Notes: generated by a model from the letters alone, not told the origin. Numbered from the stretch's first letter, positions 13,484 through 38,835 are shown. The stretch: DNA of 64,000 nucleotides from Vairimorpha necatrix (GCA_036630325.1 CP142730.1:868001-932000); one strand, 5' to 3'. Made by a program: numbers and translations.

Positions 13484-15790
13484 TTAATTAAAAATTTTAT
13501 CATCTTGATTTACGTAAATTTTCACCAGATCGTCATGAAAATTATCCTTTACTTCCGCAAAAAATTCTAAGATTTCCTCTTCGCTCAATACTTTTATTAT
13601 TTGGTTAATATACTTTTCGTATTTAAATTTTATATTTAATTCAGTCGTAAAAAAACTTTCAAATGCAATTTTTAAAACCTGCAATAATTCGCGCCTACAA
13701 CATATTCTTACATTTTTTTCAATATTAGTCAATAGTTTTATGCCTATTTTTTCTACTATCTCATTGTAAAGTTCATTTATTATGTTTTCATCACGATTAT
13801 TTATCATTATCACTAGATCTATTATCATGCTATCATGTTCGTATAAATTTTTTATGGCTATCTTTATACGTTCAAGTAGTTTATTTAAAAATTCAAATTT
13901 TACTTCTTGATCATATAAATGGTCTACTTTTATATTTAATGCATCAGTCATTATTTCATTTAGCGCTACACTTAACTTAAGTTTAAGAATTTTTTCAAAA
14001 TTATATTTTAATTCTTCTTTAGATATATTTTTCTCGGAGTTGTTTTCTAGCGAACATTTTATTTGGTAAAAATATTTCCTGTATTTTTTTTCGGCGTCCT
14101 CTTGTGAGTTTGATGCTAGTTTTTTTCTTATTGCCTCGTTATTAATATTTACTTCATTTATGTCAAATCCAAGAGTATTGATAACAGTATCTTTATGCGT
14201 AATTGATTGATAAGAATTTATTTCACACTTAGTTTTTTCAAGTCCTGTAAACAAAATCGATATTTCTAAGATACGAATCAAAATCTGTTTCCTGAGGATT
14301 TTAATATCTTTAAAATGAAGCTTCTCGAAATTTCGATAAATTTTTACTATATCGATTATATTTTTATTGTGGGGTAATTGAACTTCATTTATAGAGACTT
14401 TTTTTTCTATGTTTTCTTTGAGTTTAACTAATATTCCTATTTGTTTTAAAGTATTGAATATTGAATCATTCAAATCATCATTTTCGTTGATGTACCTTTC
14501 AGCCTCTAAAAACAAACAAATTTTTATGAAATATGTAAATAATATATCTACGCGCAGTATCAAATTTCTCAGAATTATTTCAATAATCTGTATTTTTCTT
14601 TCCCCGTTAAGTTTGTCCACGCCCAACATTTTGTTAAACTCATTTCTATCTATTAATTTTTGAATTAGCATAAGATGTGCACAAATAATGCATAAAGGAT
14701 TCTTTGAATTACTTATAATTCTGTCTAACAACAATTCTATTTTGTTTTTATTTTCGATTAATCTAAAAAACAATTCAACACTATCGTATTTAAAATCTAT
14801 AAGCCGAATCTTAATAAAAAGTTCTTTAAATTCCTCCAAGGTTTTTTTTTCAATGATGTTTTCATTGTCAACCTTGGTAGAATTATTATCTAAATTGTAA
14901 ACAAATTTTCCCAAGTTATGTGTAATCTGAATACTATTATTATTGATTGAGATTACAAAATTCAAATTATATAGTTCAATATTATCAATGTCGAAAGATA
15001 TGATATGTTTTTTATAATTTAAACTTAATCCCTCTAGGATAATAAACCTGTATAAATCATGGAATTTTTTACTAATTACCTTGTTAGTTTCATTAGTATC
15101 CGATGACTTTAATTCAACTCTGTTAAAAAATGTCTCTTCTTTGAGTTCTTTCAAATTTAATTCAAAAAAGTAATAAACATCATCTAAATAAATGCTGATA
15201 TTTAAATAACACTCATCGTTTCTTTCAACTATTGTAAGTGGTATTCTAAAATCTTTAGGATCTCCGTTATAAAACCTAAAATCAATTTTTATTCTACCTA
15301 CTATTCTATCCCACAGACAATAGTGATCATCAATAATATCATAAAAAATCTTAGAACACATGCTCAATTCTGTTCTTTTGGCATTTTCTTCTTTTAAATA
15401 ATTAATAATTTTTTTGTATATTGGATCTACTACATAAAAATTTGAGTTATATACTAAAATTATTGAGTCCGCTAGAATTTTTTCATATTCAAGCAATAAT
15501 ACTTCTTCAAATTCTTTAACAATAGTTTCAACAGACTTGCCTCTACAATTAATATTTATGTCTTCAAGACTCTTACTCTCATTCCATGGGAAAAATTCTA
15601 TCTCTAATTTTGCATTTAATTCGTGTATACTCAAAAACTTAAATTCTACTTTCAAATATCGCTTATTATTTACAATAACACAATAGTCTCGTTTGGCTAT
15701 TTTATTAGTTAAAATAGTATTAAGTCTATCATAGACACCTTTCCAAGAATGTATAAATACAAAAAAAATAATTAGTTTACTACTATTCAT
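13484..15790 (-). CDS. Lineage-specific ~770-aa protein with putative signal peptide (paralog A)
   Basis: 768-aa ORF, CCCT-ATG start, hydrophobic N-terminus. Clear full-length paralog at 29036-31351. No recognisable domain. Confidence 0.85.
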   Translation of the reverse strand: MNSSKLIIFFVFIHSWKGVYDRLNTILTNKIAKRDYCVIVNNKRYLKVEFKFLSIHELNAKLEIEFFPWNESKSLEDININCRGKSVETIVKEFEEVLLLEYEKILADSIILVYNSNFYVVDPIYKKIINYLKEENAKRTELSMCSKIFYDIIDDHYCLWDRIVGRIKIDFRFYNGDPKDFRIPLTIVERNDECYLNISIYLDDVYYFFELNLKELKEETFFNRVELKSSDTNETNKVISKKFHDLYRFIILEGLSLNYKKHIISFDIDNIELYNLNFVISINNNSIQITHNLGKFVYNLDNNSTKVDNENIIEKKTLEEFKELFIKIRLIDFKYDSVELFFRLIENKNKIELLLDRIISNSKNPLCIICAHLMLIQKLIDRNEFNKMLGVDKLNGERKIQIIEIILRNLILRVDILFTYFIKICLFLEAERYINENDDLNDSIFNTLKQIGILVKLKENIEKKVSINEVQLPHNKNIIDIVKIYRNFEKLHFKDIKILRKQILIRILEISILFTGLEKTKCEINSYQSITHKDTVINTLGFDINEVNINNEAIRKKLASNSQEDAEKKYRKYFYQIKCSLENNSEKNISKEELKYNFEKILKLKLSVALNEIMTDALNIKVDHLYDQEVKFEFLNKLLERIKIAIKNLYEHDSMIIDLVIMINNRDENIINELYNEIVEKIGIKLLTNIEKNVRICCRRELLQVLKIAFESFFTTELNIKFKYEKYINQIIKVLSEEEILEFFAEVKDNFHDDLVKIYVNQDDKIFN

Positions 15791-16078
15791 AGGGAGTAAA
15801 AAATATTTTTATTAATAAACTATTTCATATATTCAAAAAAAATAAATATTTTACTTACAAAGTAGCATAAATCTAGGATTAGTCTCTAGATTGTATTGTG
15901 ATAATAGTGAATACATCTCAATCTAGATGTCATAAAAATTCAACACCTGTCAAATATTTCCCAGCGCCTGTCAAACATAAAAAAAACAGAAAGAACATGT
16001 ATTTAATGTGTTTATGAAGACAAATCCCTTAAAATATAGTAAAATAATTGTACATAAGCTAAATCTACCTATCAATCA

Positions 16079-16597
16079 TCATATATATAAAAGAATTTTA
16101 TTTAATTTTTTACCCCTCTTTTTTGTGGTTTTGAAATTTTTAAACTATATATATATTAGGCTTTCTATGTTATTTAAATATCAAATATAGATTTATGGCG
16201 ATAATTTGACTATTCTAAGTGTGTATGTTATTAGTTAATACTTTTTAATTTTGATTATTATTTTTGTAAAACTCAGTTCCAAAATATCGTCAGAATCGTT
16301 TTTTAGAATTTATTTAACCCTTCTAGAAAAAATTCACAAAAACATTAACCAAAAAATAAGTAAAATATAAGTGTCAAAAATTGAGCTTAGAAGTTTCCAA
16401 AATTATCTCATTGTAATTATTAAATGTTTTTAGCTCAACTTTACTCCTTATATGTTACTAAAAAGTATTTTGTAAATTCATGTTTTTTCCTTATCAAATT
16501 TATTTTTCCCAAAATGGAAACTCAGAAAATAAAGTAGAAATAAATGCCATGAACAATAAATCAATCCCGTTTTCCAAAACGGGAAAGCATACGCTAG
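16079..16597 (+). mobile_element. Non-autonomous Helitron-like element, copy 1 (519 bp)
   Basis: A|TC 5' end. 3' hairpin CCCGTTTT-CC-AAAACGGG (16566-16583) lies 10 bp before CTAG|T. No TSD. Homologous copy at 20000-20518. Confidence 0.8.
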
Positions 16598-16779
16598 TTA
16601 TAAAATAAAAAATTTATTTAATTTTTTTTCTCTCATTTATATGATTTTGAAGTATCGAAGTAATTATTTTGCTATTGTTATATGTGAATTATATCAAATT
16701 TAAAGTTAATGCTTTGAATTAAATATCCATTGCGAGTATCTATATGTTAATGATTTTTATTAATTTAATTCATATTTTA

Positions 16780-16817
16780 TGTTAACCATTTATTTATTAA
16801 GGGTTCTAAACCCTACA
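16780..16817 (-). repeat. 3' micro-LTR of Gypsy 1
   Basis: TGTAGGGTTTAGAACCCTTAATAAATAAATGGTTAACA (minus strand), identical to 19817-19854. Confidence 0.93.
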
Positions 16818-19800
16818 TCCCCCCTCCAGACGGGTAGTCTCTCCATCTTCTAAACAACTCTTCCTTATCTCTTTCAAATCATAATGCCTCTTTTTAACAA
16901 TTTTACCATCCAGTAGTCTCACAATATATGAATCATTTTCACTTATAGCTACGATCCTTCCGCGACCCGTGAATCTTCCCTTGTCTGTTTTCGCACGTGT
17001 ACCTAAATTTTCTCTCCTAGCGATTCTTACCTCTTGGCCTACTGTAAATGTCTCTCTGTGTCTTCTCTTGAACCGACCAGCATATTTTCCATTTTCATCA
17101 TTTTCAATTATAACTTCAGCAGTTTGATCTCTCCACGCTTCCATCGGCGTACATTTTATTGCTGTATGTAGTGTATTATTATATCCTTTGATTGCTCTTT
17201 CTATCTTTTCAGAAATATTCCCATCATTTTGCTTTATCAATGTCTCTCTTATAGTTCTGATGCATCTCTCGATTCTACCATTACTCCTATGAGCTTCTAA
17301 GCCCACTTTCCTATGTTTAATATCATTAATACTACACCATTCTTTAAATCTATTACTTACAAACTCTTTTCCGTTGTCTGTCACATATTCCTCTGGAAAT
17401 CCATCTTCCCTTATCCACTTTTGTAATACCTCTATAACTTCACTACTCTCTTTACATCTCAAATTCGAACCCCACAACCTTCTAGTAAAGTAATCAATAC
17501 CCAGTAACACATACCTATTCTCTCCACCTATGTCCATTAAATCCAACGCCACTTTCTCCAATTTCTTTCTAGTTACTACGAAATCACATCCTCCTGTGTT
17601 TTTCCTATTGTTAATCCCACATATTTCACAATTCTTAATTACCTTATTAATATGATCTTTCATACCAGGCCAATACCATCTTTGTTTAATGTTATAATAA
17701 GTGCCTTTGACACCTCTATGGTTTAACTCCTCATGTACTCTTGTTATTTCATGTTCTCTACTATCTAGGCTCAATATCTCTTTCACCTCACCTGTGGAAA
17801 ATTCCCAATACTGTTTACCGTCCTTTTCTTTAATATGTTTCTGCTTTTTTCCCAAAATTTGTTTTTCGATCACTTCTTTTCTCTTGTTGTCCTTTTCTTT
17901 TTGTTCATCCGAAACTTCTACCTGATCATACTGCCTGCTTAACGCATCTGCATCTGTCATCAACTCCCCTTTCACATACTCTATTGTAAAGTCAAACTCT
18001 TGTATCTGTTCTACCCATCTGTTTATTCTGTTATTATTGAAGTATGGCTTATTTCTGATCTCTGCTAATGCTTTATGATCCGTCATCAAATGAAATTTCC
18101 TTCCTCTCAAATCACTTTCAAACTTCTTTATTCCAAAAAACACCGCCAACATCTCCTTCTCACTTATCGTATATCTTCGCTCGGTAGGAGTCAACATTTT
18201 CGATGCCCATTGTATCGGAATCCACTCACCCTCTTTATTTTCTTGTACTAGAATTGCTCCGATCCCCGTATCACACGCATCAGTTCTTACTCTAAATAGC
18301 TTTTTTCCGTCCGGAATCTTCAACTTTTTCATATCTCTCAAGCCTTGCTTCATATCCTCAAAAGCTCTTTCCATATCCTCCGTCCAATTCCACTTAACAT
18401 CTTTCTTTAAAGCCTCAGTAAGCCTTACTGTTCTATACGCATAGTTGGGAATAAAGTCTCTAAACCAACCAGTTAGTCCTAAAAATCTTCTTAACTCTCT
18501 AACATTCTCAGGTTTTCTATATTCCAATGTCTCCTGCTTTTTAATCTCATTCGGTCCCATGACCTCCCCATTAATTGTTACTCCCAGCAACATCACCTCA
18601 TCTTTTTTGTATTGTATCTTTGTTTGGTTTATTCTCAACCCACACTCTTTAAACTTTTTAATTACCCTCTCTAGTAACTCGTCATGCACTCTTACGTCTT
18701 TACCATGAATAACTATATCATCCATATATACTTCCACGCCTTTACCTCTGAATTCATCTAAAACTCTGTTCATTACTCTCTGCATTATATGAGGCGAATT
18801 CTTAAACCCCATAACCATACTATTCCATTCGTATACTCGACCATTCACTTCAAATGCTGTTTTGTGCTTATGGTGCTCCTCAATCTCAATATGATAAAAC
18901 CCTTCTTTTAAGTCGATAACCGTAAATACTTTTGACCCCTGTGTGGCTCTCATAATATCCTTAATTAACGGTAGTGAGTACGGGTCCTTGTCAACCAAAT
19001 CGTTTAACGCCATCAAATTGCTTACCAATCTTACGTCCCCATTTGGGTTTTCAAGTGCTCTTATTGGACTCCTCCACTCACTTTTGGAACGTCTTATAAC
19101 CCCTCTATTTTCCAACTTATTCAAGTACTCCTCAAATTTCACCCTAAGGTAGTATGGCACATTCTGCCCTCTTTTCACAACCTTTTCACCTTGCTTAGTA
19201 TTTATTGGACACTTCTCTCCTGTGAGATATTTTATCTTTTCTTCTGATTCTTTAAAAACTTCCGGATACTTTTCAATTAAATTTTCTAACTTATTTACTG
19301 TTTTACATCTTTTCCCTTCATTGTTGATAATTGGTTCTTTCTGTAAAACTTGTTCCTTTTTAATTTTATATTTTTCCCTACCAGCTACACTTTCATGACA
19401 TTCTCTAGCGTAATGCCCTTCTTTCTTACATATAAAACATTTTGTAGTTTCTCTGATTTCTCTTCTTTTCCTATACATCCTAAGATTTTCTTTTCTTTCT
19501 TCCCTAAACTCTTTCAACACTTTATCGATAATCTCTTTAATCATTTCTTGTCTTTCTTCTGACTCTCTCTCAAATTCTGCTCCTTTTTGTAAGCCTTTAT
19601 AAATTTCCTCCCAACTGCTCCTTCCGTCACAAAAATTTTCAAAAATATAATCCTGCAAGTTCGCAGATGCCAAATCCATAACATCTTTCCACTCAACTTT
19701 CTCAACTTTCAATATTAACTTTAGTCTCTTATCTATCCTAATTGCCTCTTTCTCTAATGTTCTAGCCTCTTGACTACGGGACTCTCTTGTTTCCCTGTTC

Positions 19801-19826
19801 ATCCTTGTGTTCGCCATGTTAACCAT
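16806..19826 (-). CDS. Gypsy polyprotein: short Gag + CCHC, RT, RNase H, integrase
   Basis: CFICKKEGHYAREC knuckle. RT motifs IDLKEGFYHI, KTAF, YMDDI. RNase H TDAC..GIGA, EKEMLA, TDH, ADALSR. Integrase HHCC, D..TDNGKEF, SNGRIER. Intact 1006 aa. Confidence 0.97.
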   Translation of the reverse strand: MVNMANTRMNRETRESRSQEARTLEKEAIRIDKRLKLILKVEKVEWKDVMDLASANLQDYIFENFCDGRSSWEEIYKGLQKGAEFERESEERQEMIKEIIDKVLKEFREERKENLRMYRKRREIRETTKCFICKKEGHYARECHESVAGREKYKIKKEQVLQKEPIINNEGKRCKTVNKLENLIEKYPEVFKESEEKIKYLTGEKCPINTKQGEKVVKRGQNVPYYLRVKFEEYLNKLENRGVIRRSKSEWRSPIRALENPNGDVRLVSNLMALNDLVDKDPYSLPLIKDIMRATQGSKVFTVIDLKEGFYHIEIEEHHKHKTAFEVNGRVYEWNSMVMGFKNSPHIMQRVMNRVLDEFRGKGVEVYMDDIVIHGKDVRVHDELLERVIKKFKECGLRINQTKIQYKKDEVMLLGVTINGEVMGPNEIKKQETLEYRKPENVRELRRFLGLTGWFRDFIPNYAYRTVRLTEALKKDVKWNWTEDMERAFEDMKQGLRDMKKLKIPDGKKLFRVRTDACDTGIGAILVQENKEGEWIPIQWASKMLTPTERRYTISEKEMLAVFFGIKKFESDLRGRKFHLMTDHKALAEIRNKPYFNNNRINRWVEQIQEFDFTIEYVKGELMTDADALSRQYDQVEVSDEQKEKDNKRKEVIEKQILGKKQKHIKEKDGKQYWEFSTGEVKEILSLDSREHEITRVHEELNHRGVKGTYYNIKQRWYWPGMKDHINKVIKNCEICGINNRKNTGGCDFVVTRKKLEKVALDLMDIGGENRYVLLGIDYFTRRLWGSNLRCKESSEVIEVLQKWIREDGFPEEYVTDNGKEFVSNRFKEWCSINDIKHRKVGLEAHRSNGRIERCIRTIRETLIKQNDGNISEKIERAIKGYNNTLHTAIKCTPMEAWRDQTAEVIIENDENGKYAGRFKRRHRETFTVGQEVRIARRENLGTRAKTDKGRFTGRGRIVAISENDSYIVRLLDGKIVKKRHYDLKEIRKSCLEDGETTRLEGGCRV

Positions 19827-19854
19827 TTATTTATTAAGGGTTCTAAACCCTACA
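19817..19854 (-). repeat. 5' micro-LTR of Gypsy 1
   Basis: Identical to 16780-16817. Contains CCC, AATAAA and the first ATG of the ORF. Confidence 0.93.
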
Positions 19855-19999
19855 TTTTATAAACCAAGTTTTAAAGTATCGTTAGAATCGTTTTTTAGAA
19901 TTCACTGTACACTTTCCACAAAAATTTTAAAAGCATTTAATTATAAATCTCGAATAAAATTGTCAAAATCGAACTTAAAGCATAAGAAAGTTATCCTAA

Positions 20000-20518
20000 T
20001 CATATATATAAAAGAATTTTATTTAATTTTTTACCCCTCTTTTTTGTGAATTTGAAATTTCTAAACGATACATTTTGAGCCTTTTACGTTAATATAATAT
20101 CATATATAGATTTAATGTTTCAATTTGATAATTATAGATGCGTATACTATATGTTAATACTTTTCGTTTTTAATAAAGTTTTTTGTAAAACTCAGTTCCA
20201 AAATATCGTCAGAATCGTTTTTTAGAATTAATTTAACCCTTCCACGAAAAATTGCAAATTAATTTATTAATAAAGATTTTGAATATAAATGTCAAAACTT
20301 GAGCTTAGAAAATCCCAAAATTATCTCATTATAATTATTAAATATTTTAGCTCAACTTTACTCCTTATATGTTACTAAAAAGTATTTTTTAAAATCATGT
20401 TTCCCCTTTCTAAATTCATTCATCCCCAAATGGAAACTTACCAAAATTTACCGAGGCGGGACATATAATAAAACAAAACATTTAAATCCCGTTTTCAAAA
20501 CGGGAAAGCATACGCTAG
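20000..20518 (+). mobile_element. Non-autonomous Helitron-like element, copy 2 (519 bp)
   Basis: A|TCATATATATAAAAG start. Hairpin CCCGTTTT-C-AAAACGGG (20488-20504), then AAAGCATACGCTAG|T. Colinear with 16079-16597. Confidence 0.8.
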
Positions 20519-20787
20519 TAATTTTATAATACATTTTTATTAATTACCAATATAGTTTTGAAAGAATAAGTTTTACTACTTAAAAATGTATGGGGAAAAG
20601 TCGCCAACGTATATAAGGTAATGCCAAAAATAGCCCTTAAAGGGTAAATTAAAATGTTTATATTTTTTTATGGTATCATCCTTAAAGTTATCAATGACTT
20701 TATTTCTTTAAGCACATACGAATAGTCATTGTCTTTTGTTTTTTTATTTTTAGCATAACTTTTGTTTTTCTTTCTTTTAATATTATG

Positions 20788-20836
20788 TGTGTTTATTTTC
20801 CATAATGAGGGGTAAAAATAATAAGGATATATAACA
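20788..20836 (-). repeat. 3' micro-LTR of Gypsy 2
   Basis: TGTTATATATCCTTATTATTTTTACCCCTCATTATGGAAAATAAACACA (minus strand), identical to 23923-23971. Confidence 0.93.
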
Positions 20837-20863
20837 TCCCCCCTCCAAGACGGTAGTCTCATA

Positions 20864-23800
20864 CTAGAACTCATTAATCTCAAGCAGACCTTTTAAATCA
20901 TAATGCCGCTTTTTCACGATCCTACCATTTTCCAAACTAACTAAGTACGAGTCACCTCCGCAAACTTCCTTGATAACACCATATCCTAAAAACCTTCCTT
21001 TCTCATACTTACTACAACCCGATAAGTTCTCTTTCTTCGCTACCCTAACTCTCTGACCTTTATAGAATTTCTCTCTTTTGCGAGCCACAAACCTCCTACT
21101 ATAAAATCCTTCAGGTCCATTCTCGATCATAACATGGCCCGTTTTGTCTCTTGAGGCCTCAAACGGTGTACATCTCAACCCTTCATGATAGCTGTTATTA
21201 TAACGCCATATACATCTATTAACCTTGGCTTCAAAATCCACAGCATCATCTTTCAATATTCCTTCTCTTATGGTTCCTATTACCCTTTCCACTCTTCCAT
21301 TACTTCTATGACTTTCTACGCTTACTTTCCTATGTAATACATTTTCCTCTGAACACCAATTCCTCATATATTCATTACTAAATTCTTTACCGTTGTCAGT
21401 AATTATTTCTACCGGTTTCATTCCTGATCCACACAACTGTTTTAAAAATCCTACAACCGAGCTTCCGCGTTTGTCCTCTATTACTTTTCCCCAAACGATC
21501 CTAGTATAATAATCAATCACGACCAACACATATTTCCCTAAATCTCTAAACTCAATCAAATCCAAAGCAACCTTTTCAAAATAAAATCTTGAACTAACAA
21601 AATCACAACCACCACTCTTTTTCCTATTATATATTTGGCAAACTTCACACTTCTTTAAAACATCCTCGATATCCTTCTTCATACCCGGCCAATAAAATTC
21701 AAACTTCATTGCATAGTACACTGATCCTAAACTTCTATGTCCCAAATTTTCATGAGCATTGACAATTAAACCTTCACGCAATTCTTTCTTTGGAATCTCC
21801 GCTTCTCTACCAGAGTCAAATACCCAAATTTCCTTCCCATCAACAACTTTAACATGCTTGTCCCATTTACCCTGTGCCTGTTTAATACTTCTCTCCTTAT
21901 TCATTAGCGTTTTCTCATTTTCATGTACCCTACTCAGTGCATCTGCTACAACCATGGTACTAGGCTCTCTATATTCAATGCTAAAGTCGAACTCTTGAAT
22001 CTTTTCAATCCACCTGTTAATTCTATTATTGTTAAATGCTGGTTTATTTCTAATCTCGATCAATGCCTTATGATCAGTTTCTACCCTAAATCTTCTTCCG
22101 CGTAGTTCATATTCAAACTTTTTAATTCCCCAAAAGACTGCATACATCTCCTTCTCACTGATTCCATATCTCGTTTCCGTAGGCGTAAACTTTTTTGATG
22201 CCCACTGTACTGGTACCCAATTACCTTGATCATCTTCCTGCATTAAAACAGCACCCATTCCAACATTACTCGCATCCGTGCGTAACAAAAATTCCTTATT
22301 ATAATTAACAATTGCTAAACCTTTTAAATCCCTAATCACTTCCCTTAAACTAATATATTCTTTTTCCATTTCTTCTGTCCATTTCCAATTACTTCCTCGT
22401 CCTTTAAGAGAATCCGTCAACGCCAATGTACGTTTTGCATAATTATCAATATGATTTCTAAACCATCCAGCCAGCCCAAGAAACTTCCTAACATCTGATA
22501 CACACTCCGGTTTGGGAAATTCTAACGCTTCATTTTGCTTTATTTCAGATGGCAGTATCTCCTTGCCATTAACTGTTACTCCTAACAACATCACCTCTCG
22601 TTTACATAATTGAACCTTAGCCAAATTAATTTTCATACTATTCTCCTCTAATATATCCACAGCCTCTTTCAACAATTTGTCGTGACCCTCTCTTGTCTTA
22701 CTATGAATCACAATATCGTCCATATAAATTTCGATTCCCTTACCAATAAATTTTTCAAAAATCCCATTCATTATTCTTTGTAATATCTGCGGTGAGTTTT
22801 TAAACCCCATGACCATCGAATTCCACTCGTATACCTTTTTATTAAACTCAAAAGCCGTCTTAAACCTATCCTTCTCTTCAATCTCAACACTATAAAACCC
22901 CTCCTTTAGATCTATCACGGTAAAAAATTCAGATCCCTGTGTACTTCTAATAACATCTCTTATCCTAGTTAACTCATAAGGATCCTTCTCTACAATGTCA
23001 TTAAGAGCAATTAAATTACTTACTAATCTTATATCACCATTCGGTTTCTCAATCGCTCTAATGGGATTTCTCCAATCAGATGTCGACCTTCTAATTATCT
23101 TTCTTCTTTCCAAACTATTAATATAATCTTCCGTCTTCTTCAACAAAGCCTGAGCTATAGCCTGCCCTTTTTTAACAACTTTCTTGCCTTCTTGAGTCTT
23201 GATAATACATTTTTCAACCTTACAAAAACTAATATCTTCATCCTCTCTTCCTCCTACCCGTGAAATAATCTCCTCTAAATACGCGATGCCTCTTACATCC
23301 CTTCTCAACAGAACTCTCTTATTATTGTCCCTTTTGCTATAATCTTGTATATCCCCAAAATTTTTCTTCTTACGTTTCCCACCATCAACATTATAATAAT
23401 CACATTTGTCCGAATTGGAATCGTCATCACATTTACCCTCTAAGTCTAATTGCACTTTACATTTACCAACATAATTAAAACTACTTTTATTTCTTCTGTC
23501 TTCAGAATCTCGCCTCATTCCCCTACAAAATCTAACACTATGGCCTAACTTCCCACAATTGTAGCAACGCATATTCTTTTTATTTTCCTCACGAGACAAC
23601 TTATTCTTCTCCTCAAATTTAGCCCATAACGCTAGGGACAACTCTTCAAATTCTTTTTTTCTCACTTGTTCCTTTTCCTCCTGAATAGCTAGCAACTCTA
23701 ATTTTTCCTCAATTTCCTTCCAACTACCCTCTTGCGAGATCCTCTCAACAATAAAATTTCTCAATAAAATAGAACCTCTCCTAAAAATTTCTAATTTAAA

Positions 23801-23938
23801 TCCACACTCATCAATTTTCTCTAAAAACAACTCATAAACAATCCTTTTAACCTCTTTTAATAATATTCTAGCCTCTTGGCCACGGTCCTCCTTTGTAGAC
23901 CCATTTTCTGGTATCGCCCCCATGTGTTTATTTTCCAT
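20864..23938 (-). CDS. Gypsy polyprotein: short Gag + CCHC, RT, RNase H, integrase
   Basis: CYNCGKLGHSVRFC, IDLKEGFY, YMDDI, TDASNVGMGA, ADALSR, H..LGH..C..C, TDNGKEF, SNGRVER. Intact 1024 aa. Confidence 0.97.
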   Translation of the reverse strand: MENKHMGAIPENGSTKEDRGQEARILLKEVKRIVYELFLEKIDECGFKLEIFRRGSILLRNFIVERISQEGSWKEIEEKLELLAIQEEKEQVRKKEFEELSLALWAKFEEKNKLSREENKKNMRCYNCGKLGHSVRFCRGMRRDSEDRRNKSSFNYVGKCKVQLDLEGKCDDDSNSDKCDYYNVDGGKRKKKNFGDIQDYSKRDNNKRVLLRRDVRGIAYLEEIISRVGGREDEDISFCKVEKCIIKTQEGKKVVKKGQAIAQALLKKTEDYINSLERRKIIRRSTSDWRNPIRAIEKPNGDIRLVSNLIALNDIVEKDPYELTRIRDVIRSTQGSEFFTVIDLKEGFYSVEIEEKDRFKTAFEFNKKVYEWNSMVMGFKNSPQILQRIMNGIFEKFIGKGIEIYMDDIVIHSKTREGHDKLLKEAVDILEENSMKINLAKVQLCKREVMLLGVTVNGKEILPSEIKQNEALEFPKPECVSDVRKFLGLAGWFRNHIDNYAKRTLALTDSLKGRGSNWKWTEEMEKEYISLREVIRDLKGLAIVNYNKEFLLRTDASNVGMGAVLMQEDDQGNWVPVQWASKKFTPTETRYGISEKEMYAVFWGIKKFEYELRGRRFRVETDHKALIEIRNKPAFNNNRINRWIEKIQEFDFSIEYREPSTMVVADALSRVHENEKTLMNKERSIKQAQGKWDKHVKVVDGKEIWVFDSGREAEIPKKELREGLIVNAHENLGHRSLGSVYYAMKFEFYWPGMKKDIEDVLKKCEVCQIYNRKKSGGCDFVSSRFYFEKVALDLIEFRDLGKYVLVVIDYYTRIVWGKVIEDKRGSSVVGFLKQLCGSGMKPVEIITDNGKEFSNEYMRNWCSEENVLHRKVSVESHRSNGRVERVIGTIREGILKDDAVDFEAKVNRCIWRYNNSYHEGLRCTPFEASRDKTGHVMIENGPEGFYSRRFVARKREKFYKGQRVRVAKKENLSGCSKYEKGRFLGYGVIKEVCGGDSYLVSLENGRIVKKRHYDLKGLLEINEF

Positions 23939-23971
23939 AATGAGGGGTAAAAATAATAAGGATATATAACA
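23923..23971 (-). repeat. 5' micro-LTR of Gypsy 2
   Basis: Identical to 20788-20836. Order on minus strand: TATATA, T-run, CCCC, ATG, AATAAA, CA. Confidence 0.93.
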
Positions 23972-26965: not shown

Positions 26966-28000
26966 GGTGCTTCTCCGTTTTGCTGCCCCAATAAAAATGG
27001 GGCAGCAAAAAAAATAAATTTAATAAAATCAATTAGAACATCCATTTCCTCATTCTTCAATACATTATTAAAAAAAATTTCTAAAAGTAAATTCTTTGAG
27101 CCAAGATTCGATATTCACACGTTTTACTTCGTGCTGTTTAGTCATTTCAGATTTCATACCAGACGAAAAATTCTCAATATTATTAGTATGAAAACCTTCT
27201 TCATTAGTAAATCCTATCGAATGTTTTACAATAATGTGTTTGAGTTTTAGATTCGCTGCTACACCGGGATAACTAGGATGGCCATCCGAAATAAGAACTG
27301 ATCCCGGTAAGACTATATCTCAATTATATTTGTTAAAGTATTTATCTTTCGATCCGGAACTTGTACTATACAAATATTTTTTCTATCTACAGATTCTATT
27401 AACCCCAAAATCCATACAGTATCTTTAATTCCATCATCTGCTCTAGATGGAACTCTAATAGTTCCTCTTCTACACAGTACAGTTTCATCAACTTGAACTC
27501 CCGATCCACCGATTTTGCAATCGGTTTCCAATTTCTTTCTAATATATTCCCTCAATTTAAGCTTTATTTTTAAAATAGTGTCATTTGACACACACGTTAA
27601 ACATTTAATTAATCTATAATTGCTGTTACAAAGGACCAAGAACACAACAAAAAGATAAATTTCAAATGATAATTTAATGCCAGGTAAAAAGCTTTTTTTT
27701 GCCCTGCATTCTTCTCTCATACACCTATAAACTAATCTTTCCTTTCCCCTTTCCAATAATATTGTAAGCTTTGCAACAATATGATCACAAGAACCACATC
27801 GTCTAATCAAATTAATAATTCCAGTCTCTATCATGTAGTCTTTACATGAGGCAAGACTGGAAAACAAAGGATGTCTATAATTATAAAAGTTTATTTTTGT
27901 CATTTTTGGGGCTTTTTATAAAAAAATAAAAATTATTAAATTTTTGCTTTTCTCCGTTTTGCTGCCCCATTTTTTGGGGGCAGCAAAACGGAGAAGCGCC
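26966..28000 (-). mobile_element. Merlin (IS1595/ISXO2-like) DNA transposon A
   Basis: 24-bp TIR GG(T/C)GCTTCTCCGTTTTGCTGCCCC. 8-bp TSD TAAAGTCT (26958-26965, 28001-28008). Internal inverted TIR copies at both ends. Confidence 0.93.
27020..27903 (-). pseudogene. Frameshifted Merlin DDE transposase
   Basis: Zn-ribbon C..C...C....C, VQVDET, WILGLIE, VPDR. After a frameshift at ~27315 it continues VLPGSVLISDGHPSYP...GFHTNNIENF. 3' end approximate. Confidence 0.85.
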
Positions 28001-29035: not shown

Positions 29036-31351
29036 TCAAATAAGTTTATTAAAATTCTCTTTTTCTTGGTCCTTGTAAATTTTCACCAAAACATCGTGCA
29101 AATTAATTTCCACTCCATTTAAAATTTCAAAAATTTCCTTATCACTTAAGACTTTAACTATTTGTTTAATATAATTTCCATAATTGCGGTCTATGTCTAA
29201 ATCAGACTCAAAATTATCTTCGTATTTTACTATTAAAACCTGCAATAATTCCCGTTTACAACATATTCTCGCATTTTTTTCGATATTAGTCCATAAACTT
29301 ATACGCACTTTTTCTACTATCTCATTAAAAAGTTCATTCATATATTCTTCATCCCAATTCCTTATCATTTTCGCCAATTCTTTCATTATGATATCATGTC
29401 TGTATACATTTTTTATAGCTTGATTTGCACGTTCGCTCAGTTCATTTAAAAATGCATTTTTTACTTCCTCATCATATAAATGGTCTATTTTTTCATTTAA
29501 TGCATTAGTCATTATTTCATTTAACGCTTCATTTAACTTAAATTTGTGAATTTTATCAAAAATATTTCTTAATTCTTCTTTTAATATACTTTTCTCGCTT
29601 TTGTTTTCTAGCAAATATTTTATCTGGTAAAAATATTTCCTGTATTCTTTTTCGGCGTCCTCTTGTAAATTTAAAGTTAATTTTTTTCTTATTGCCTCAT
29701 TATTTTTATCAACTTCATTTCTAAATAATCTAAACAAATCGAGAACTTTATTCTTTTGCGTAAAGCATTTATCAAATTCTAATTTATAGACACATCTTTC
29801 CAATCCTGTAAACAACGACAATAATTTTAGAATATAAGACCATATCTGCTTTCTAAACATTTTAATATCTTTAAAATGGAGCTCTATAAATTCTTGATAT
29901 ATTTTTCTTAAATCAATTATTTCTTTATTTTGCGATGAATGGAATGAATTTGCATGGACATTAATTTCGACCTGATTTTTGGTGTTAATAAAAATTCCTA
30001 TTTTCTTTAAAGCACTAAATATTGGATCATTAATAATAAAAATTTCGTTTAAGTATCTTTCGGCCTCTAAGAACAAACAATATTTTATGATATACGTATA
30101 TGATGAATATTCACGATGTACAAATTTGGTTAGAAATCGTTTTGTGATCTGTGTTTTTCTTTCCGCGCAAAGTTTATCTACGCTTAACAATATATTTAAT
30201 TCATTTTCATCTATTAATTCTTGATCTAACATAAGATAAGAAAATATGATGCAACAAGGGTTGTCTGGACTATTTAAAATGTTATTTACCAGATATTCTA
30301 CTTTGTTTTTATTTTTTATTAATCTAAAAAATAATTCAACTTTAGTAAAATCCAGCTCCAATAAACGAATTTTTTTAAAAAACTCCTTTAATATCATGAC
30401 AGTTTTTTTCTTTTTAAAATTTTTATTTCCAGTTGAACATGATATGCTATTCAAATGGCAAACATAATTTTCCTTATCGTTTGTAAATCGCAACGCGTTA
30501 CTTATCATAAATATCTCAAAGTTCTGAGAAAATAATATGATTCTATCAAGTTCGAAGGTTGTAGAGTGCAAATGACTATCTAAACTTATTCCCTCTAGGA
30601 TAATAAACCTGTATAAATCATAAAAACATCTACTGATAATCTTGTTTGTTTCATTAGTATCTGATGACTTAAATTCAACTATGTTAAAAAATGTCTCATC
30701 ATTAAGTTCTTTCAAATTAAATTCAAATAAATAATAAACATGATCCAAATAAATACTGAAATTCAAATAACACTCATCGTTTTTTTCAAATATTTCAAGT
30801 GGTATTATATAATAATTAGGATCTCTGCCTAAAAACTTTAATTTGTGTTTTATACTACATACTATTCTATTCCACAGACAATAATGATCATCAATAATAT
30901 CATAAAAAATTTTAGTACACACACTCAATTCTGTTCTTTTGGCATTTTCTTCTTTTAAATAATTAATAATTTTTTTGTATATTGGATCTACTACATAAAA
31001 ATTTGAGTTATATACTAAAATTATTGAGTCAGCTAGTATTTTTTCATATTCAAGCAATAATACTTCTTCAAATTCTTTTACAATACATCTAACAGATTTG
31101 CCTCTACAATTAATATTTATGTCTTTAACAATTTTACTCTCATCCCATGGAAAGGTTTCTATCATCAATTTTGCATTCAATTCCTGTAAATCTGTATATT
31201 TCAATTCTACTTTTAAATATCGCCTTTTAATGTCAATAACATAATAATCTCGTTTGGAAATTTTGTTGGTTAAAATAGTGTTAAGTCTATCATAGACACC
31301 TTTCCAAGAATGTATAAATATAAAAAAGCTCATTAATTTACAACTATTCAT
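29036..31351 (-). CDS. Lineage-specific ~770-aa protein with putative signal peptide (paralog B)
   Basis: 771-aa ORF, CCCA-ATG start. Aligns end to end with 13484-15790. Confidence 0.85.
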   Translation of the reverse strand: MNSCKLMSFFIFIHSWKGVYDRLNTILTNKISKRDYYVIDIKRRYLKVELKYTDLQELNAKLMIETFPWDESKIVKDININCRGKSVRCIVKEFEEVLLLEYEKILADSIILVYNSNFYVVDPIYKKIINYLKEENAKRTELSVCTKIFYDIIDDHYCLWNRIVCSIKHKLKFLGRDPNYYIIPLEIFEKNDECYLNFSIYLDHVYYLFEFNLKELNDETFFNIVEFKSSDTNETNKIISRCFYDLYRFIILEGISLDSHLHSTTFELDRIILFSQNFEIFMISNALRFTNDKENYVCHLNSISCSTGNKNFKKKKTVMILKEFFKKIRLLELDFTKVELFFRLIKNKNKVEYLVNNILNSPDNPCCIIFSYLMLDQELIDENELNILLSVDKLCAERKTQITKRFLTKFVHREYSSYTYIIKYCLFLEAERYLNEIFIINDPIFSALKKIGIFINTKNQVEINVHANSFHSSQNKEIIDLRKIYQEFIELHFKDIKMFRKQIWSYILKLLSLFTGLERCVYKLEFDKCFTQKNKVLDLFRLFRNEVDKNNEAIRKKLTLNLQEDAEKEYRKYFYQIKYLLENKSEKSILKEELRNIFDKIHKFKLNEALNEIMTNALNEKIDHLYDEEVKNAFLNELSERANQAIKNVYRHDIIMKELAKMIRNWDEEYMNELFNEIVEKVRISLWTNIEKNARICCKRELLQVLIVKYEDNFESDLDIDRNYGNYIKQIVKVLSDKEIFEILNGVEINLHDVLVKIYKDQEKENFNKLI

Positions 31352-37539: not shown

Positions 37540-38835
37540 GGCGCTACTTAAAAATTCGCACCCCCCTAAAAAATACGTTCACTGAAAAAAAATTATTTGG
37601 TATAAAATGAGATAAAATCAAATTTTAAAGGATTTTTTTTCCGGGGGTGCGAATTTTTAAGTAATGGTATTTTGAACGTGAAATTTTTTTATTTTATCTA
37701 TCCCTTATAATGAACATGATGATGGATGAAATGCTTCAATTCAATCCATACAATCCTATTTTCACTGATAATGACAGGGCAATCGACTACGGATTGAAGA
37801 ACAACTTGTTATATCCTTGTATTCCCTGTACTAATGATCAGTGCAAAGGAATTATGTTTATTCAAAACATATCTTTGTTTTCTCAAGGAAAGGGGTACAA
37901 ATGTAGCAAAAAAATTTGTAAACGAAGATGTTCATAAAATAAAGGTTCTAAATTTAAATCTTTAGATATTGAATTTAAAAAAAATTCTTCGTTGCATTTA
38001 TTGTTGGTGTCTGTCATATACTAATTTTCAGGCCATCAACATGTGTGAAACTTCTAAACCAACATATATTTCTTGAAAAGAAATATTAATAGAAACAATT
38101 TCCAAGTGTTCTACTGTTGTTACAATGATAGGTGGAGTTGGTCAGAGGATACAAATAGACGAAACAGCTATTTGTAATGGAATTATAGTATCGAATCCGT
38201 CTAGTCGATTGGATTCTGAACCTGGAATTCAGTGGATAATAGGAGGTGTATTGGAAGGAAATTGTAGAGAGTTTTTTGTGGAACTAATACCCAATAGAAA
38301 ATGGGAAACGATTTTACAAATATTAAAAAAATATGTAAAAGTAGGCACGGATATAGTAACTGATGGTTATCCATCCTATCCACGTGCTATAAGTGAATTT
38401 GGTTCTCACCATAGTGTGGTAAATCACTCTATGGGATTTTGTAATGAAGAAGGACAAAATACAAATTATGTAGAAAATATGTGGTCGCATCTTAAGCATG
38501 ATTATAGAAAGCGTGGTGGAATAAATAAAATAAGAATTAAATGTTGGTTAGATGAGTTTAAATGGAAAAAAGAAAATATAGAATATTCAAAACCATTAAC
38601 AATCAAATTAGCCTTCGTAAAAATAATTGATATTAGTTCTATGTTAAAGTAATTAAATTTTTGAACTTATAATATGTTATAACTGTTTTTTTAAATATTT
38701 TAACTTTTGTAAATTCATATTTTCATAAAAATATTGTTTTAAATATAATTTTAAGGGTTAAAAATATTTTTTTTATATAAATTTAATTGGTCAATGTAAT
38801 TTTTTTTAGGGGGGTGCGAATTTTTAAGTAGCGCC
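37540..38835 (+). mobile_element. Merlin DNA transposon C, disrupted transposase
   Basis: TIR GGCGCTACTTAAAAATTCGCACCCCCCTAAAAAA. 8-bp TSD TAAACTTA (37532-37539, 38836-38843). ORF pieces 37710-37937 and 38125-38652 (IQIDET, VTDGYPSYP, VNHS, TNYVENMW). Internal inverted TIR copy at 37643-37663. Confidence 0.94.

Follow-up and report, generated by a model that had tools for sequence, protein, structure and literature searches.

Can a long terminal repeat (LTR) of 38–49 bp, inside which the polyprotein already begins, supply the signals for the expression of a retrotransposon? The question is raised by two elements lying in tandem on the minus strand of a 64,000-nt stretch of the Vairimorpha necatrix genome (CP142730.1, 868001–932000; hereafter the window). 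The genome comprises 15 Mb in 12 contigs and is AT-rich with compact genes. The initial annotation concerned positions 23905–23971, which correspond to the 5' LTR of element 2 plus 18 nt of the region of the primer-binding site (PBS), and read such LTRs as a host-style promoter, start codon and poly(A) signal in one. This interpretation is supported in part: the observation on the LTRs is real, and it proved to be general in the genome. We argue here that the recently mobile, single-ORF Ty3/gypsy elements of this parasite are probably expressed like an ordinary microsporidian gene.

The two elements and their polyproteins

Both elements possess TG..CA repeats, a 5-bp target site duplication (TSD), a tRNA-complementary PBS and an abutting polypurine tract (PPT), and both ORFs encode reverse transcriptase (RT), RNase H and integrase in this order, all of which are characteristic of the Ty3/gypsy superfamily (Table 1). 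Membership in the Ty1/copia superfamily was rejected, as the integrase follows RNase H instead of preceding RT.

Table 1. Features of the two retrotransposons, in window positions.
Element	Feature	Position	Strand	Remark
2	Intact Pro-primed Ty3/gypsy retrotransposon	20788..23971	-	Family P1, 3184 bp
2	TSD CATAA	23972..23976 (upstream copy); 20783-20787 (downstream copy)	-
2	5' LTR, TG..CA	23923..23971	-	49 bp, identical to 3' LTR
2	TATATA in 5' LTR	23963..23968	-	Sequence present, role as TATA box unsupported
2	T-run in 5' LTR	23949-23953	-	Precedes CCCC
2	CCCC in 5' LTR	23944..23947	-	Host-type core-promoter motif
2	LTR-internal ATG	23936..23938	-	First in-frame polyprotein start
2	AATAAA in 5' LTR	23927..23932	-	4 nt short of LTR end, in coding frame (N-K)
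2	Junction ATG	23921..23923	-	Final LTR A + PBS TG, in frame
2	PBS, coding	23910..23922	-	13 nt complementary to 3' end of tRNA-Pro(AGG)
2	Single ORF	20864..23938	-	1024 aa: mini-Gag, zinc knuckle, RT, RNase H, integrase
2	N-terminal Gag domain	23624..23893	-	Four predicted helices, pLDDT 91, 36 sequences
2	CCHC zinc knuckle	23525..23566	-	aa 125-138
2	Internal AATAAA directly after knuckle	23486..23491	-	Candidate Gag poly(A) signal
2	In-frame Tyr codon	23471..23473	-	TA ends 14 nt past hexamer; candidate site of a poly(A)-completed UAA
2	RT core	22571..23053	-	PF00078, E 2e-31 (Pfam)
2	RNase H	21989..22381	-	PF17917/PF17919 (Pfam)
2	Integrase zinc finger and core	21329..21790	-	PF17921, PF00665 (Pfam)
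2	PPT	20837..20846	-
2	3' LTR	20788..20836	-	49 bp
1	Intact Arg-primed Ty3/gypsy retrotransposon	16780..19854	-	Family A, 3075 bp
1	TSD TAAAA	19855..19859 (upstream copy); 16775-16779 (downstream copy)	-
1	5' LTR, ends CA	19817..19854	-	38 bp, identical to 3' LTR
1	LTR hairpin AGGGTT/AACCCT	19837-19851	-	CCC at 19838-19840
1	Two overlapping AATAAA in 5' LTR	19826-19835	-
1	LTR-internal ATG	19824-19826	-
1	Junction ATG	19815..19817	-	In frame
1	PBS, coding	19804..19816	-	13 nt complementary to 3' end of tRNA-Arg(TCG), 12 nt to Arg(ACG)
1	Single ORF	16806..19826	-	1006 aa, through PPT, stop 12 nt into 3' LTR
1	TATAAA and ATTAAA hexamer variants after knuckle	19359..19370	-	No Tyr at +14
1	PPT, coding LEGG	16818..16827	-
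1	3' LTR	16780..16817	-	38 bp

The features listed in the initial annotation are all present in the stated order, that is, TATATA, T-run, CCCC, ATG, AATAAA and CA in the LTR of element 2, and the CCC-containing AGGGTT/AACCCT pair, AATAAA, ATG and CA in that of element 1. The ATG inside each LTR is indeed in the polyprotein frame; counted from the second ATG, at the junction of LTR and PBS, the products would be of 1019 and 1003 aa in elements 2 and 1, respectively. This second ATG is in frame in both elements as claimed, but it is partly automatic wherever an LTR ending in A meets the TGG of the PBS. The CCCC of element 2 does not adjoin the ATG, as 5 nt separate the two; 3 nt lie between ATG and AATAAA, and the latter is followed by CACA. 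In family A the CCC lies 11 nt from the ATG, leaving the position of the transcription start site loose. The hairpin of element 1 was dismissed as a functional structure, since it does not exceed shuffled sequences (z -1.6) and is family-specific.

The PBS is protein-coding, as had been proposed, because it lies within both ORFs. Among 50 distinct tRNA genes of 68–110 nt, condensed from 63 genome matches and compared with CCA added, the 13-nt matches are to the genome's own tRNA-Pro(AGG) and tRNA-Arg(TCG), and the best match to a tRNA for any other amino acid is 7 nt. The ORF of element 1 runs through the PPT and ends inside the 3' LTR as described, but this holds for family A alone: the ORFs of the five Pro-primed families stop 16–27 nt before the 3' LTR. 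All protease-less families share a GAGACT..CGTC stretch directly before the PPT (20847-20861 and 16828-16843), which belongs to the ORF in family A but not in the P families. It may act in cis in the priming of the plus strand or in the pairing of RNA ends. One copy of family A (L035) has three LTRs, which fits a partial tandem duplication. Family P1 is represented by at least 25 copies with both LTRs among the sampled loci.

In both ORFs, a helical domain of ~125 aa is followed by a zinc knuckle and the RT, RNase H and integrase domains. No aspartic protease was matched between Gag and RT in the ORF of either window element (Pfam). The same search matched a protease family in 0/6 short families, against 8/8 longer ORFs, and the linker between knuckle and RT (~40 aa in element 1) is unconserved. 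Because of these two results, we read both elements, at the level of sequence, as derived, protease-less members of Ty3/gypsy and not as canonical ones. The model of the N-terminal domain aligned with the Arc C-lobe (Z 5.4–5.8, rmsd 2.5–2.6, 64 aligned residues), tied with unrelated helical bundles, and Foldseek returned no match to it at E<=0.001; the domain is possibly a single capsid lobe. The same Gag type was found in named proteins of Vairimorpha apis and Nosema granulosis, and, as the Gag type is shared with these species, the protease-less lineage appears to be old and under selection; together with the gene content, these homologues also point to a microsporidian host.

Several further observations were made around the elements. 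Each element is followed on its 3' side by a copy of a non-coding repeat of ~600 bp (15997-16714 and 19861-20545, offset ~3.9 kb; 73–93% alike), which may be either a non-autonomous element or the result of a local duplication. Two paralogous genes of 770 aa (13484-15790 and 29036-31351; 72–84% DNA identity) encode a signal-peptide-like N-terminus, the first having no Pfam match. Positions 38125-38652 carry a Merlin/ISXO2-like transposase fragment (PF12762), and positions 27313-27903 a second probable transposase fragment with no Pfam match. Element 2 (20788-23952) recurs at ~97% identity in sequencing runs X1, X3, X7 and X9, which belong to four studies and four organism codes and in which element 1 and the nearby ribosomal protein genes were not found at 90%; JGI protein P0157 is 97% identical to the N-terminus of the ORF of element 2. 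These matches suggest that another organism also has the family of element 2, perhaps through horizontal transfer.

Host gene signals inside the LTRs

Genes of Encephalitozoon cuniculi have 5' UTRs of 1–7 nt and a CCC-like motif, and their AAUAAA is recognised in a leaky or stochastic manner (PMC2803860). For V. necatrix, we assembled 66 host ORFs of >=150 aa without a match to the retroelement set (window and sampled loci), at least two retrotransposon fragments being included. In 38 of them a CCC ends no more than 20 nt upstream of the ATG, leaving 28/66 without it; an equal window farther upstream has one in 3/66. AATAAA occurs near the stop codon in 30/66, versus 7 and 10 in control windows, and its peak overlaps the stop codon in 14/66. 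The 66 ORFs gave no positional peak for TATA, and LTR1 has no such box; TATATA as a TATA box was therefore rejected, whereas CCC and AATAAA stand as host gene signals. The microsporidian unit of CCC/GGG near the start and AATAAA near the 3' end is found in both window LTRs. This exceeds chance expectation: of 10,132 intergenic 49-nt windows taken from the 64-kb window, 0.26% contain 'CCC..ATG plus AATAAA'.

We surveyed the genome by pattern search with PPT and RT motifs; among the matches listed (100/169 PPT and 100/198 RT places), 40 each were examined. These 80 regions yielded at least 21 PBS-bearing families with Arg, Pro, Ala, Lys, Ser or Leu tRNAs as primers, and the 21 sampled have LTRs of 38–352 bp with no spacer before the PBS. 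CCC/GGG lies within 20 nt before the polyprotein ATG in 21/21, where shuffles predict 1.45; these families are related and amount to about five lineages, not to 21 independent events, and for two of the 21 (Leu228 and Lys61) the second in-frame ATG was taken, the first being without the motif. AATAAA starts within the last 35 nt of the LTR in 14/21 families (2.29 expected), to be compared with the 30/66 host ORFs, and in short-LTR families it ends 1–13 nt ahead of the LTR end. The hexamer precedes the ATG in four families, follows it in ten and is absent from the last 35 nt in seven, so that the order CCC-ATG-AATAAA, whose conservation the initial annotation suggested checking, is not conserved.

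A tree of RT and RNase H (24 rows; Ser198 is left out, its open stretch being too short) resolved five lineages: protease-less (A, P1-P5), Ala, Lys, Ser124 and long-LTR. Because the ORF starts inside the LTR in all five, including families with LTRs of 124–352 bp, the coding LTR is, judging from this tree, ancestral and independent of LTR length. The layout is a host constraint, not a product of shrinkage, and the earlier idea that compact host signals allowed the LTR to shrink this far is not borne out, since the same layout occurs in the LTRs of 124–352 bp. What shrinks is U3, which before the ATG measures 28–33 nt in the smallest families and 96–260 nt in the longest. In two Ser-primed copies with 124-bp LTRs (L191, L208), GGGG directly precedes the ATG, matching the host's alternative motif, and U3 carries an inverted repeat.

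Mobility appears to be recent. Among 91 sampled copies with LTRs <=80 bp, 79 have an exact TSD, 68 have identical LTRs and 88 keep both ATGs in one frame, in line with the frame conservation expected at the outset; an ORF of >=990 aa is kept in 48, and both ATGs are in frame in 48/48 of these. The 79 exact-TSD copies reveal a palindromic target preference, TA-[T..A]-TA, with A at -6 in 75/79 and T at +6 in 77/79. Some LTRs end in TA, not CA (L124-L129 of family P2; L177 and L190), yet are identical within the copy and flanked by exact TSDs.

Two readings would deprive the LTR signals of their role. According to the first, the motifs are a coincidence of base composition, and full-length RNA arises by read-through from outside. 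AATAAA alone is indeed found in 11–15% of intergenic windows of 35–49 nt (15% at 49 nt), and transcription in microsporidia is known to overlap and read through (PMC2803860; PMC3629993). Nevertheless, CCC/GGG occurs in 10% of intergenic 23-nt windows as opposed to all of the families, and the dozens of unrelated positions into which copies with intact TSDs have inserted cannot each supply a promoter upstream; we regard this reading as highly improbable. The second supposes that micro-LTRs arose together with the loss of the protease in degenerate, non-autonomous passengers, the signals being a by-product of deletion. The shortest LTRs (38–49 bp) are confined to the protease-less clade, as it would predict, but LTRs of 52–79 bp with the same layout are found in the protease-bearing Ala and Lys lineages. 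More than half of the short-LTR copies retain a long ORF as noted above, and the occurrence of the Gag type in V. apis and N. granulosis argues for an old lineage under selection, making this reading very unlikely as well.

We thus favour expression through the LTR itself, which supplies the host A/T-run and CCC, then the polyprotein ATG and usually AATAAA. RNA polymerase II would start a few bases upstream of the ATG, as on host genes. Given an RNA start upstream of the PBS and a host start codon near the cap, the ATG would come to lie inside the LTR; with the ATG there, the LTR end and the PBS are coding, and the PBS would both pair with a host tRNA and be translated. A U3 of ~28–33 bp would suffice. 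Were transcription to start between CCC and ATG, the stretch copied ahead of the first strand transfer would amount to ~17–21 nt in element 2 and 11–21 nt in element 1, the underlying 5' UTR figures coming from another microsporidian species (E. cuniculi). Because the hexamer ends so close to the LTR end, cleavage is predicted to occur at the terminal CA or shortly beyond it, and almost the whole transcribed LTR would then be R, with little or no U5. An R of 11–21 nt, which is at or below the shortest quoted retroviral R (16 nt), is feasible only if the 3' end of the RNA reaches the LTR end. DNA past the 3' LTR is predictably A/T-rich owing to the target preference, and may supply the cleavage context. 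Full-length RNA would pass the hexamer of the 5' LTR through leaky host poly(A) recognition.

The junction ATG could, however, be the main start, the LTR ATG being too near the cap and skipped. It is in frame in 17/21 sampled families, one further copy having an in-frame GTG in its place and a 3' LTR of its own ending in A; Ala57 (L185), with a 57-bp LTR, has no ATG inside, so that the junction ATG is its first in-frame start; and very short 5' UTRs promote leaky scanning elsewhere (PMC13219423). As the LTR ends in A before TGG in 20/21 families, which creates the ATG automatically, its presence is no evidence of function. The junction ATG is out of frame in 3/3 families of the long-LTR clade and in that clade only, and these families depend on the LTR ATG. 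In 20/21 families an in-frame ATG is retained upstream (spacing 6–45 nt where both are in frame), and E. cuniculi genes start 1–7 nt from the cap (PMC2803860). We consider it rather unlikely that the junction ATG is the principal start, and prefer to view it as a by-product of zero spacing that may act as a back-up start, or as the first start in one family; its use is plausible. Among database relatives of the Gag, 11/30 begin with M-x(2-7)-M-A/G and nine at the junction-type Met (counted by eye on gene-caller starts).

A candidate poly(A) signal at the Gag/Pol border

Of the 18 families whose frame is intact, 11 carry AATAAA followed by the TA of an in-frame Tyr codon at +13 to +15 within a 40-codon interval at the Gag/Pol border, where the remainder of the ORFs would predict 0.31; the interval was chosen after the fact and the families belong to three clades. 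In 10 of the 11, the Tyr TA is at +14. At the protein level, [N/I/Y]-K-x4-Y follows the knuckle in 13/21 proteins of the protease-less lineage excluding the A-type branch, against a background of 0.6% in 8,979 windows and 0/5 A-type proteins; this motif was defined after seeing the data, with four short-tailed proteins left out. The protease-bearing families place the same arrangement upstream of the catalytic motif, by 15 codons in the Ala clade and 31–33 in the Ser124 clade. It is absent from element 1, P2, P5, Lys61 and the long-LTR clade.

These patterns could reflect either the protein or the RNA. If the former is the case, N-K-x4-Y would be a protease site or the first protease strand, and Gag would be freed by a protease acting in trans, for which the protease-bearing families of the same genome offer a source. 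The element 2 border reads S-F-N-Y/V, resembling retropepsin sites with an aromatic P1, and the Tyr of the Ala clade lies in the first protease strand. Moreover, host 3' ends have no TA peak at +14 after AATAAA (3/30; the highest is at +8, 12/30), and the motif is missing from the families named above. Other observations fit poorly with a protein feature: (i) a codon-blind search for N-K-x4-Y in 30 loci gave 20 matches near the border, and all 15 judged positionally homologous use AAT-AAA, as do 1/5 incidental matches and 81/141 N-K pairs overall (~2e-4 if independent); (ii) Ser124b retains the hexamer outside the N-K frame (K-I-N), the Tyr TA being at +15; (iii) the distance to the catalytic motif differs by clade; and (iv) the motif persists where the protease has been deleted, its four intervening residues being unconserved. 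We hold the protein explanation to be improbable, albeit not negligible. Because the homologous sites are all AAT-AAA and Ser124b keeps an out-of-frame hexamer, the codon and frame usage points to a nucleotide signal.

With somewhat better than even confidence, we propose that the border AATAAA and a poly(A)-completed UAA set the Gag:Pol ratio with no frameshift, no intron and, in one clade, no protease. Cleavage of part of the transcripts 14–15 nt past the border AATAAA, behind the UA of an in-frame Tyr codon, would let polyadenylation complete UAA and generate a Gag-only mRNA that lacks the catalytic Asp or RT. Read-through of the border site would give the genomic RNA and the Gag-Pol fusion, the same poly(A) leakiness acting at the hexamers of the LTR and the border.

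Contigs of 4/22 runs (X1, X3, X7, X9) were compared at this site; the origin from RNA is a guess, and contigs do not show RNA ends. X7 and X9 each have a deeper Gag contig (ending at 23496, depth 77, and 23520, depth 21) and then a shallow one (starting at 23467 and 23464, depth ~3). The predicted site at 23472 lies between the two contigs in each case, a weak hint that led us to look for the hexamer and that does not amount to evidence; in X1 and X3 the site is not resolved. A 3165-nt contig of X3 was not taken to mark transcript ends, since a k=31 assembly graph that closes on the LTR would produce this length. Likewise, L186 was rejected as a case of AATAAA replaced by ATTAAA, as this copy is decayed and carries a stop at the position concerned. 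A degraded protease-less element from a metagenome (L213) carries AATAAA after the knuckle and TAG where its relatives have Tyr.

Implications and comparison with known systems

The LTRs illustrate how far such repeats can shrink where host genes need almost no untranslated sequence, and the predicted strong-stop DNA of ~11–21 nt offers a test of the minimum repeat for strand transfer. Elements of this kind may be under-annotated in parasite genomes, as repeats this short are probably below the length settings of common LTR finders. Relatives were found in 0 of 60 pattern matches in IMG/VR, and metagenomes gave three loci from 64 matches, none with a recognisable LTR pair; in two metagenomic loci (L211/L212), with no LTR visible, a protease-less ORF continues in frame into an RNase H fragment that stems from a different element.

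If the proposed border mechanism is genuine, an internal poly(A) signal would explain the excess of free Gag in single-ORF and protease-less elements, and would make the loss of the protease in the lineage of element 2 understandable. Poly(A)-completed stops, known from mitochondria and Blastocystis, would then also have a regulated use in a mobile element, and it is attractive to envisage an LTR retrotransposon run nearly wholly on leaky host mRNA signals, with a promoter of ~30 bp and an R of less than ~21 nt.

The closest precedent for the LTR is Ty1 of Saccharomyces cerevisiae, with a 53-nt 5' UTR, a PBS at nt 95–104 inside the GAG coding sequence (PMC5454406) and only 10 contiguous nt of PBS (PMC3592414). 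As in Ty1, the PBS of the window elements lies within the Gag reading frame. Ty1 has the copia domain order, a frameshift, its own protease and an LTR of ~330 bp, whereas the window elements combine the gypsy order with a 38–49-bp LTR, one ORF, no protease and, presumably, a 5' UTR of a few nt. Among microsporidia, Ty3/gypsy elements include the Nbr elements of Nosema bombycis. Microsporidia-specific single-polyprotein Ty3/gypsy groups were described by Parisot et al. (2014; PMC4202319), in whose main text the word 'protease' is absent; no statement on LTR length, start codon position, protease loss or Gag expression was found there.

The plant Ty1/copia element EVD obtains excess Gag from a single ORF through a prematurely ended subgenomic mRNA, shGAG (Oberlin et al. 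2017, PMC5580714). In EVD the stop codon arises by splicing, whereas no intron is invoked for the window elements, in which a poly(A) tail added at a Tyr codon would complete it. In some mitochondria and in Blastocystis nuclear genes (~15% of the latter), the poly(A) tail provides one or both As of UAA (PMC4159000). Those are ordinary gene ends, in contrast to an internal, partly used site that would set the Gag:Pol ratio in element 2. As to strand transfer, mouse mammary tumor virus manages with an R of 16 nt (PMC6088434), and a similarly short R is predicted here. Retroviruses with a very short R have LTRs of hundreds of bases and a non-coding PBS.

Searches of the open-access literature turned up neither LTRs of 38–49 bp in such elements nor a Gag stop completed by polyadenylation. 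The coding PBS is already known, and the LTR layout is an extreme variant of that of Ty1; the new component is the candidate poly(A) signal at the border, which is well supported in sequence and the most surprising element of the system.
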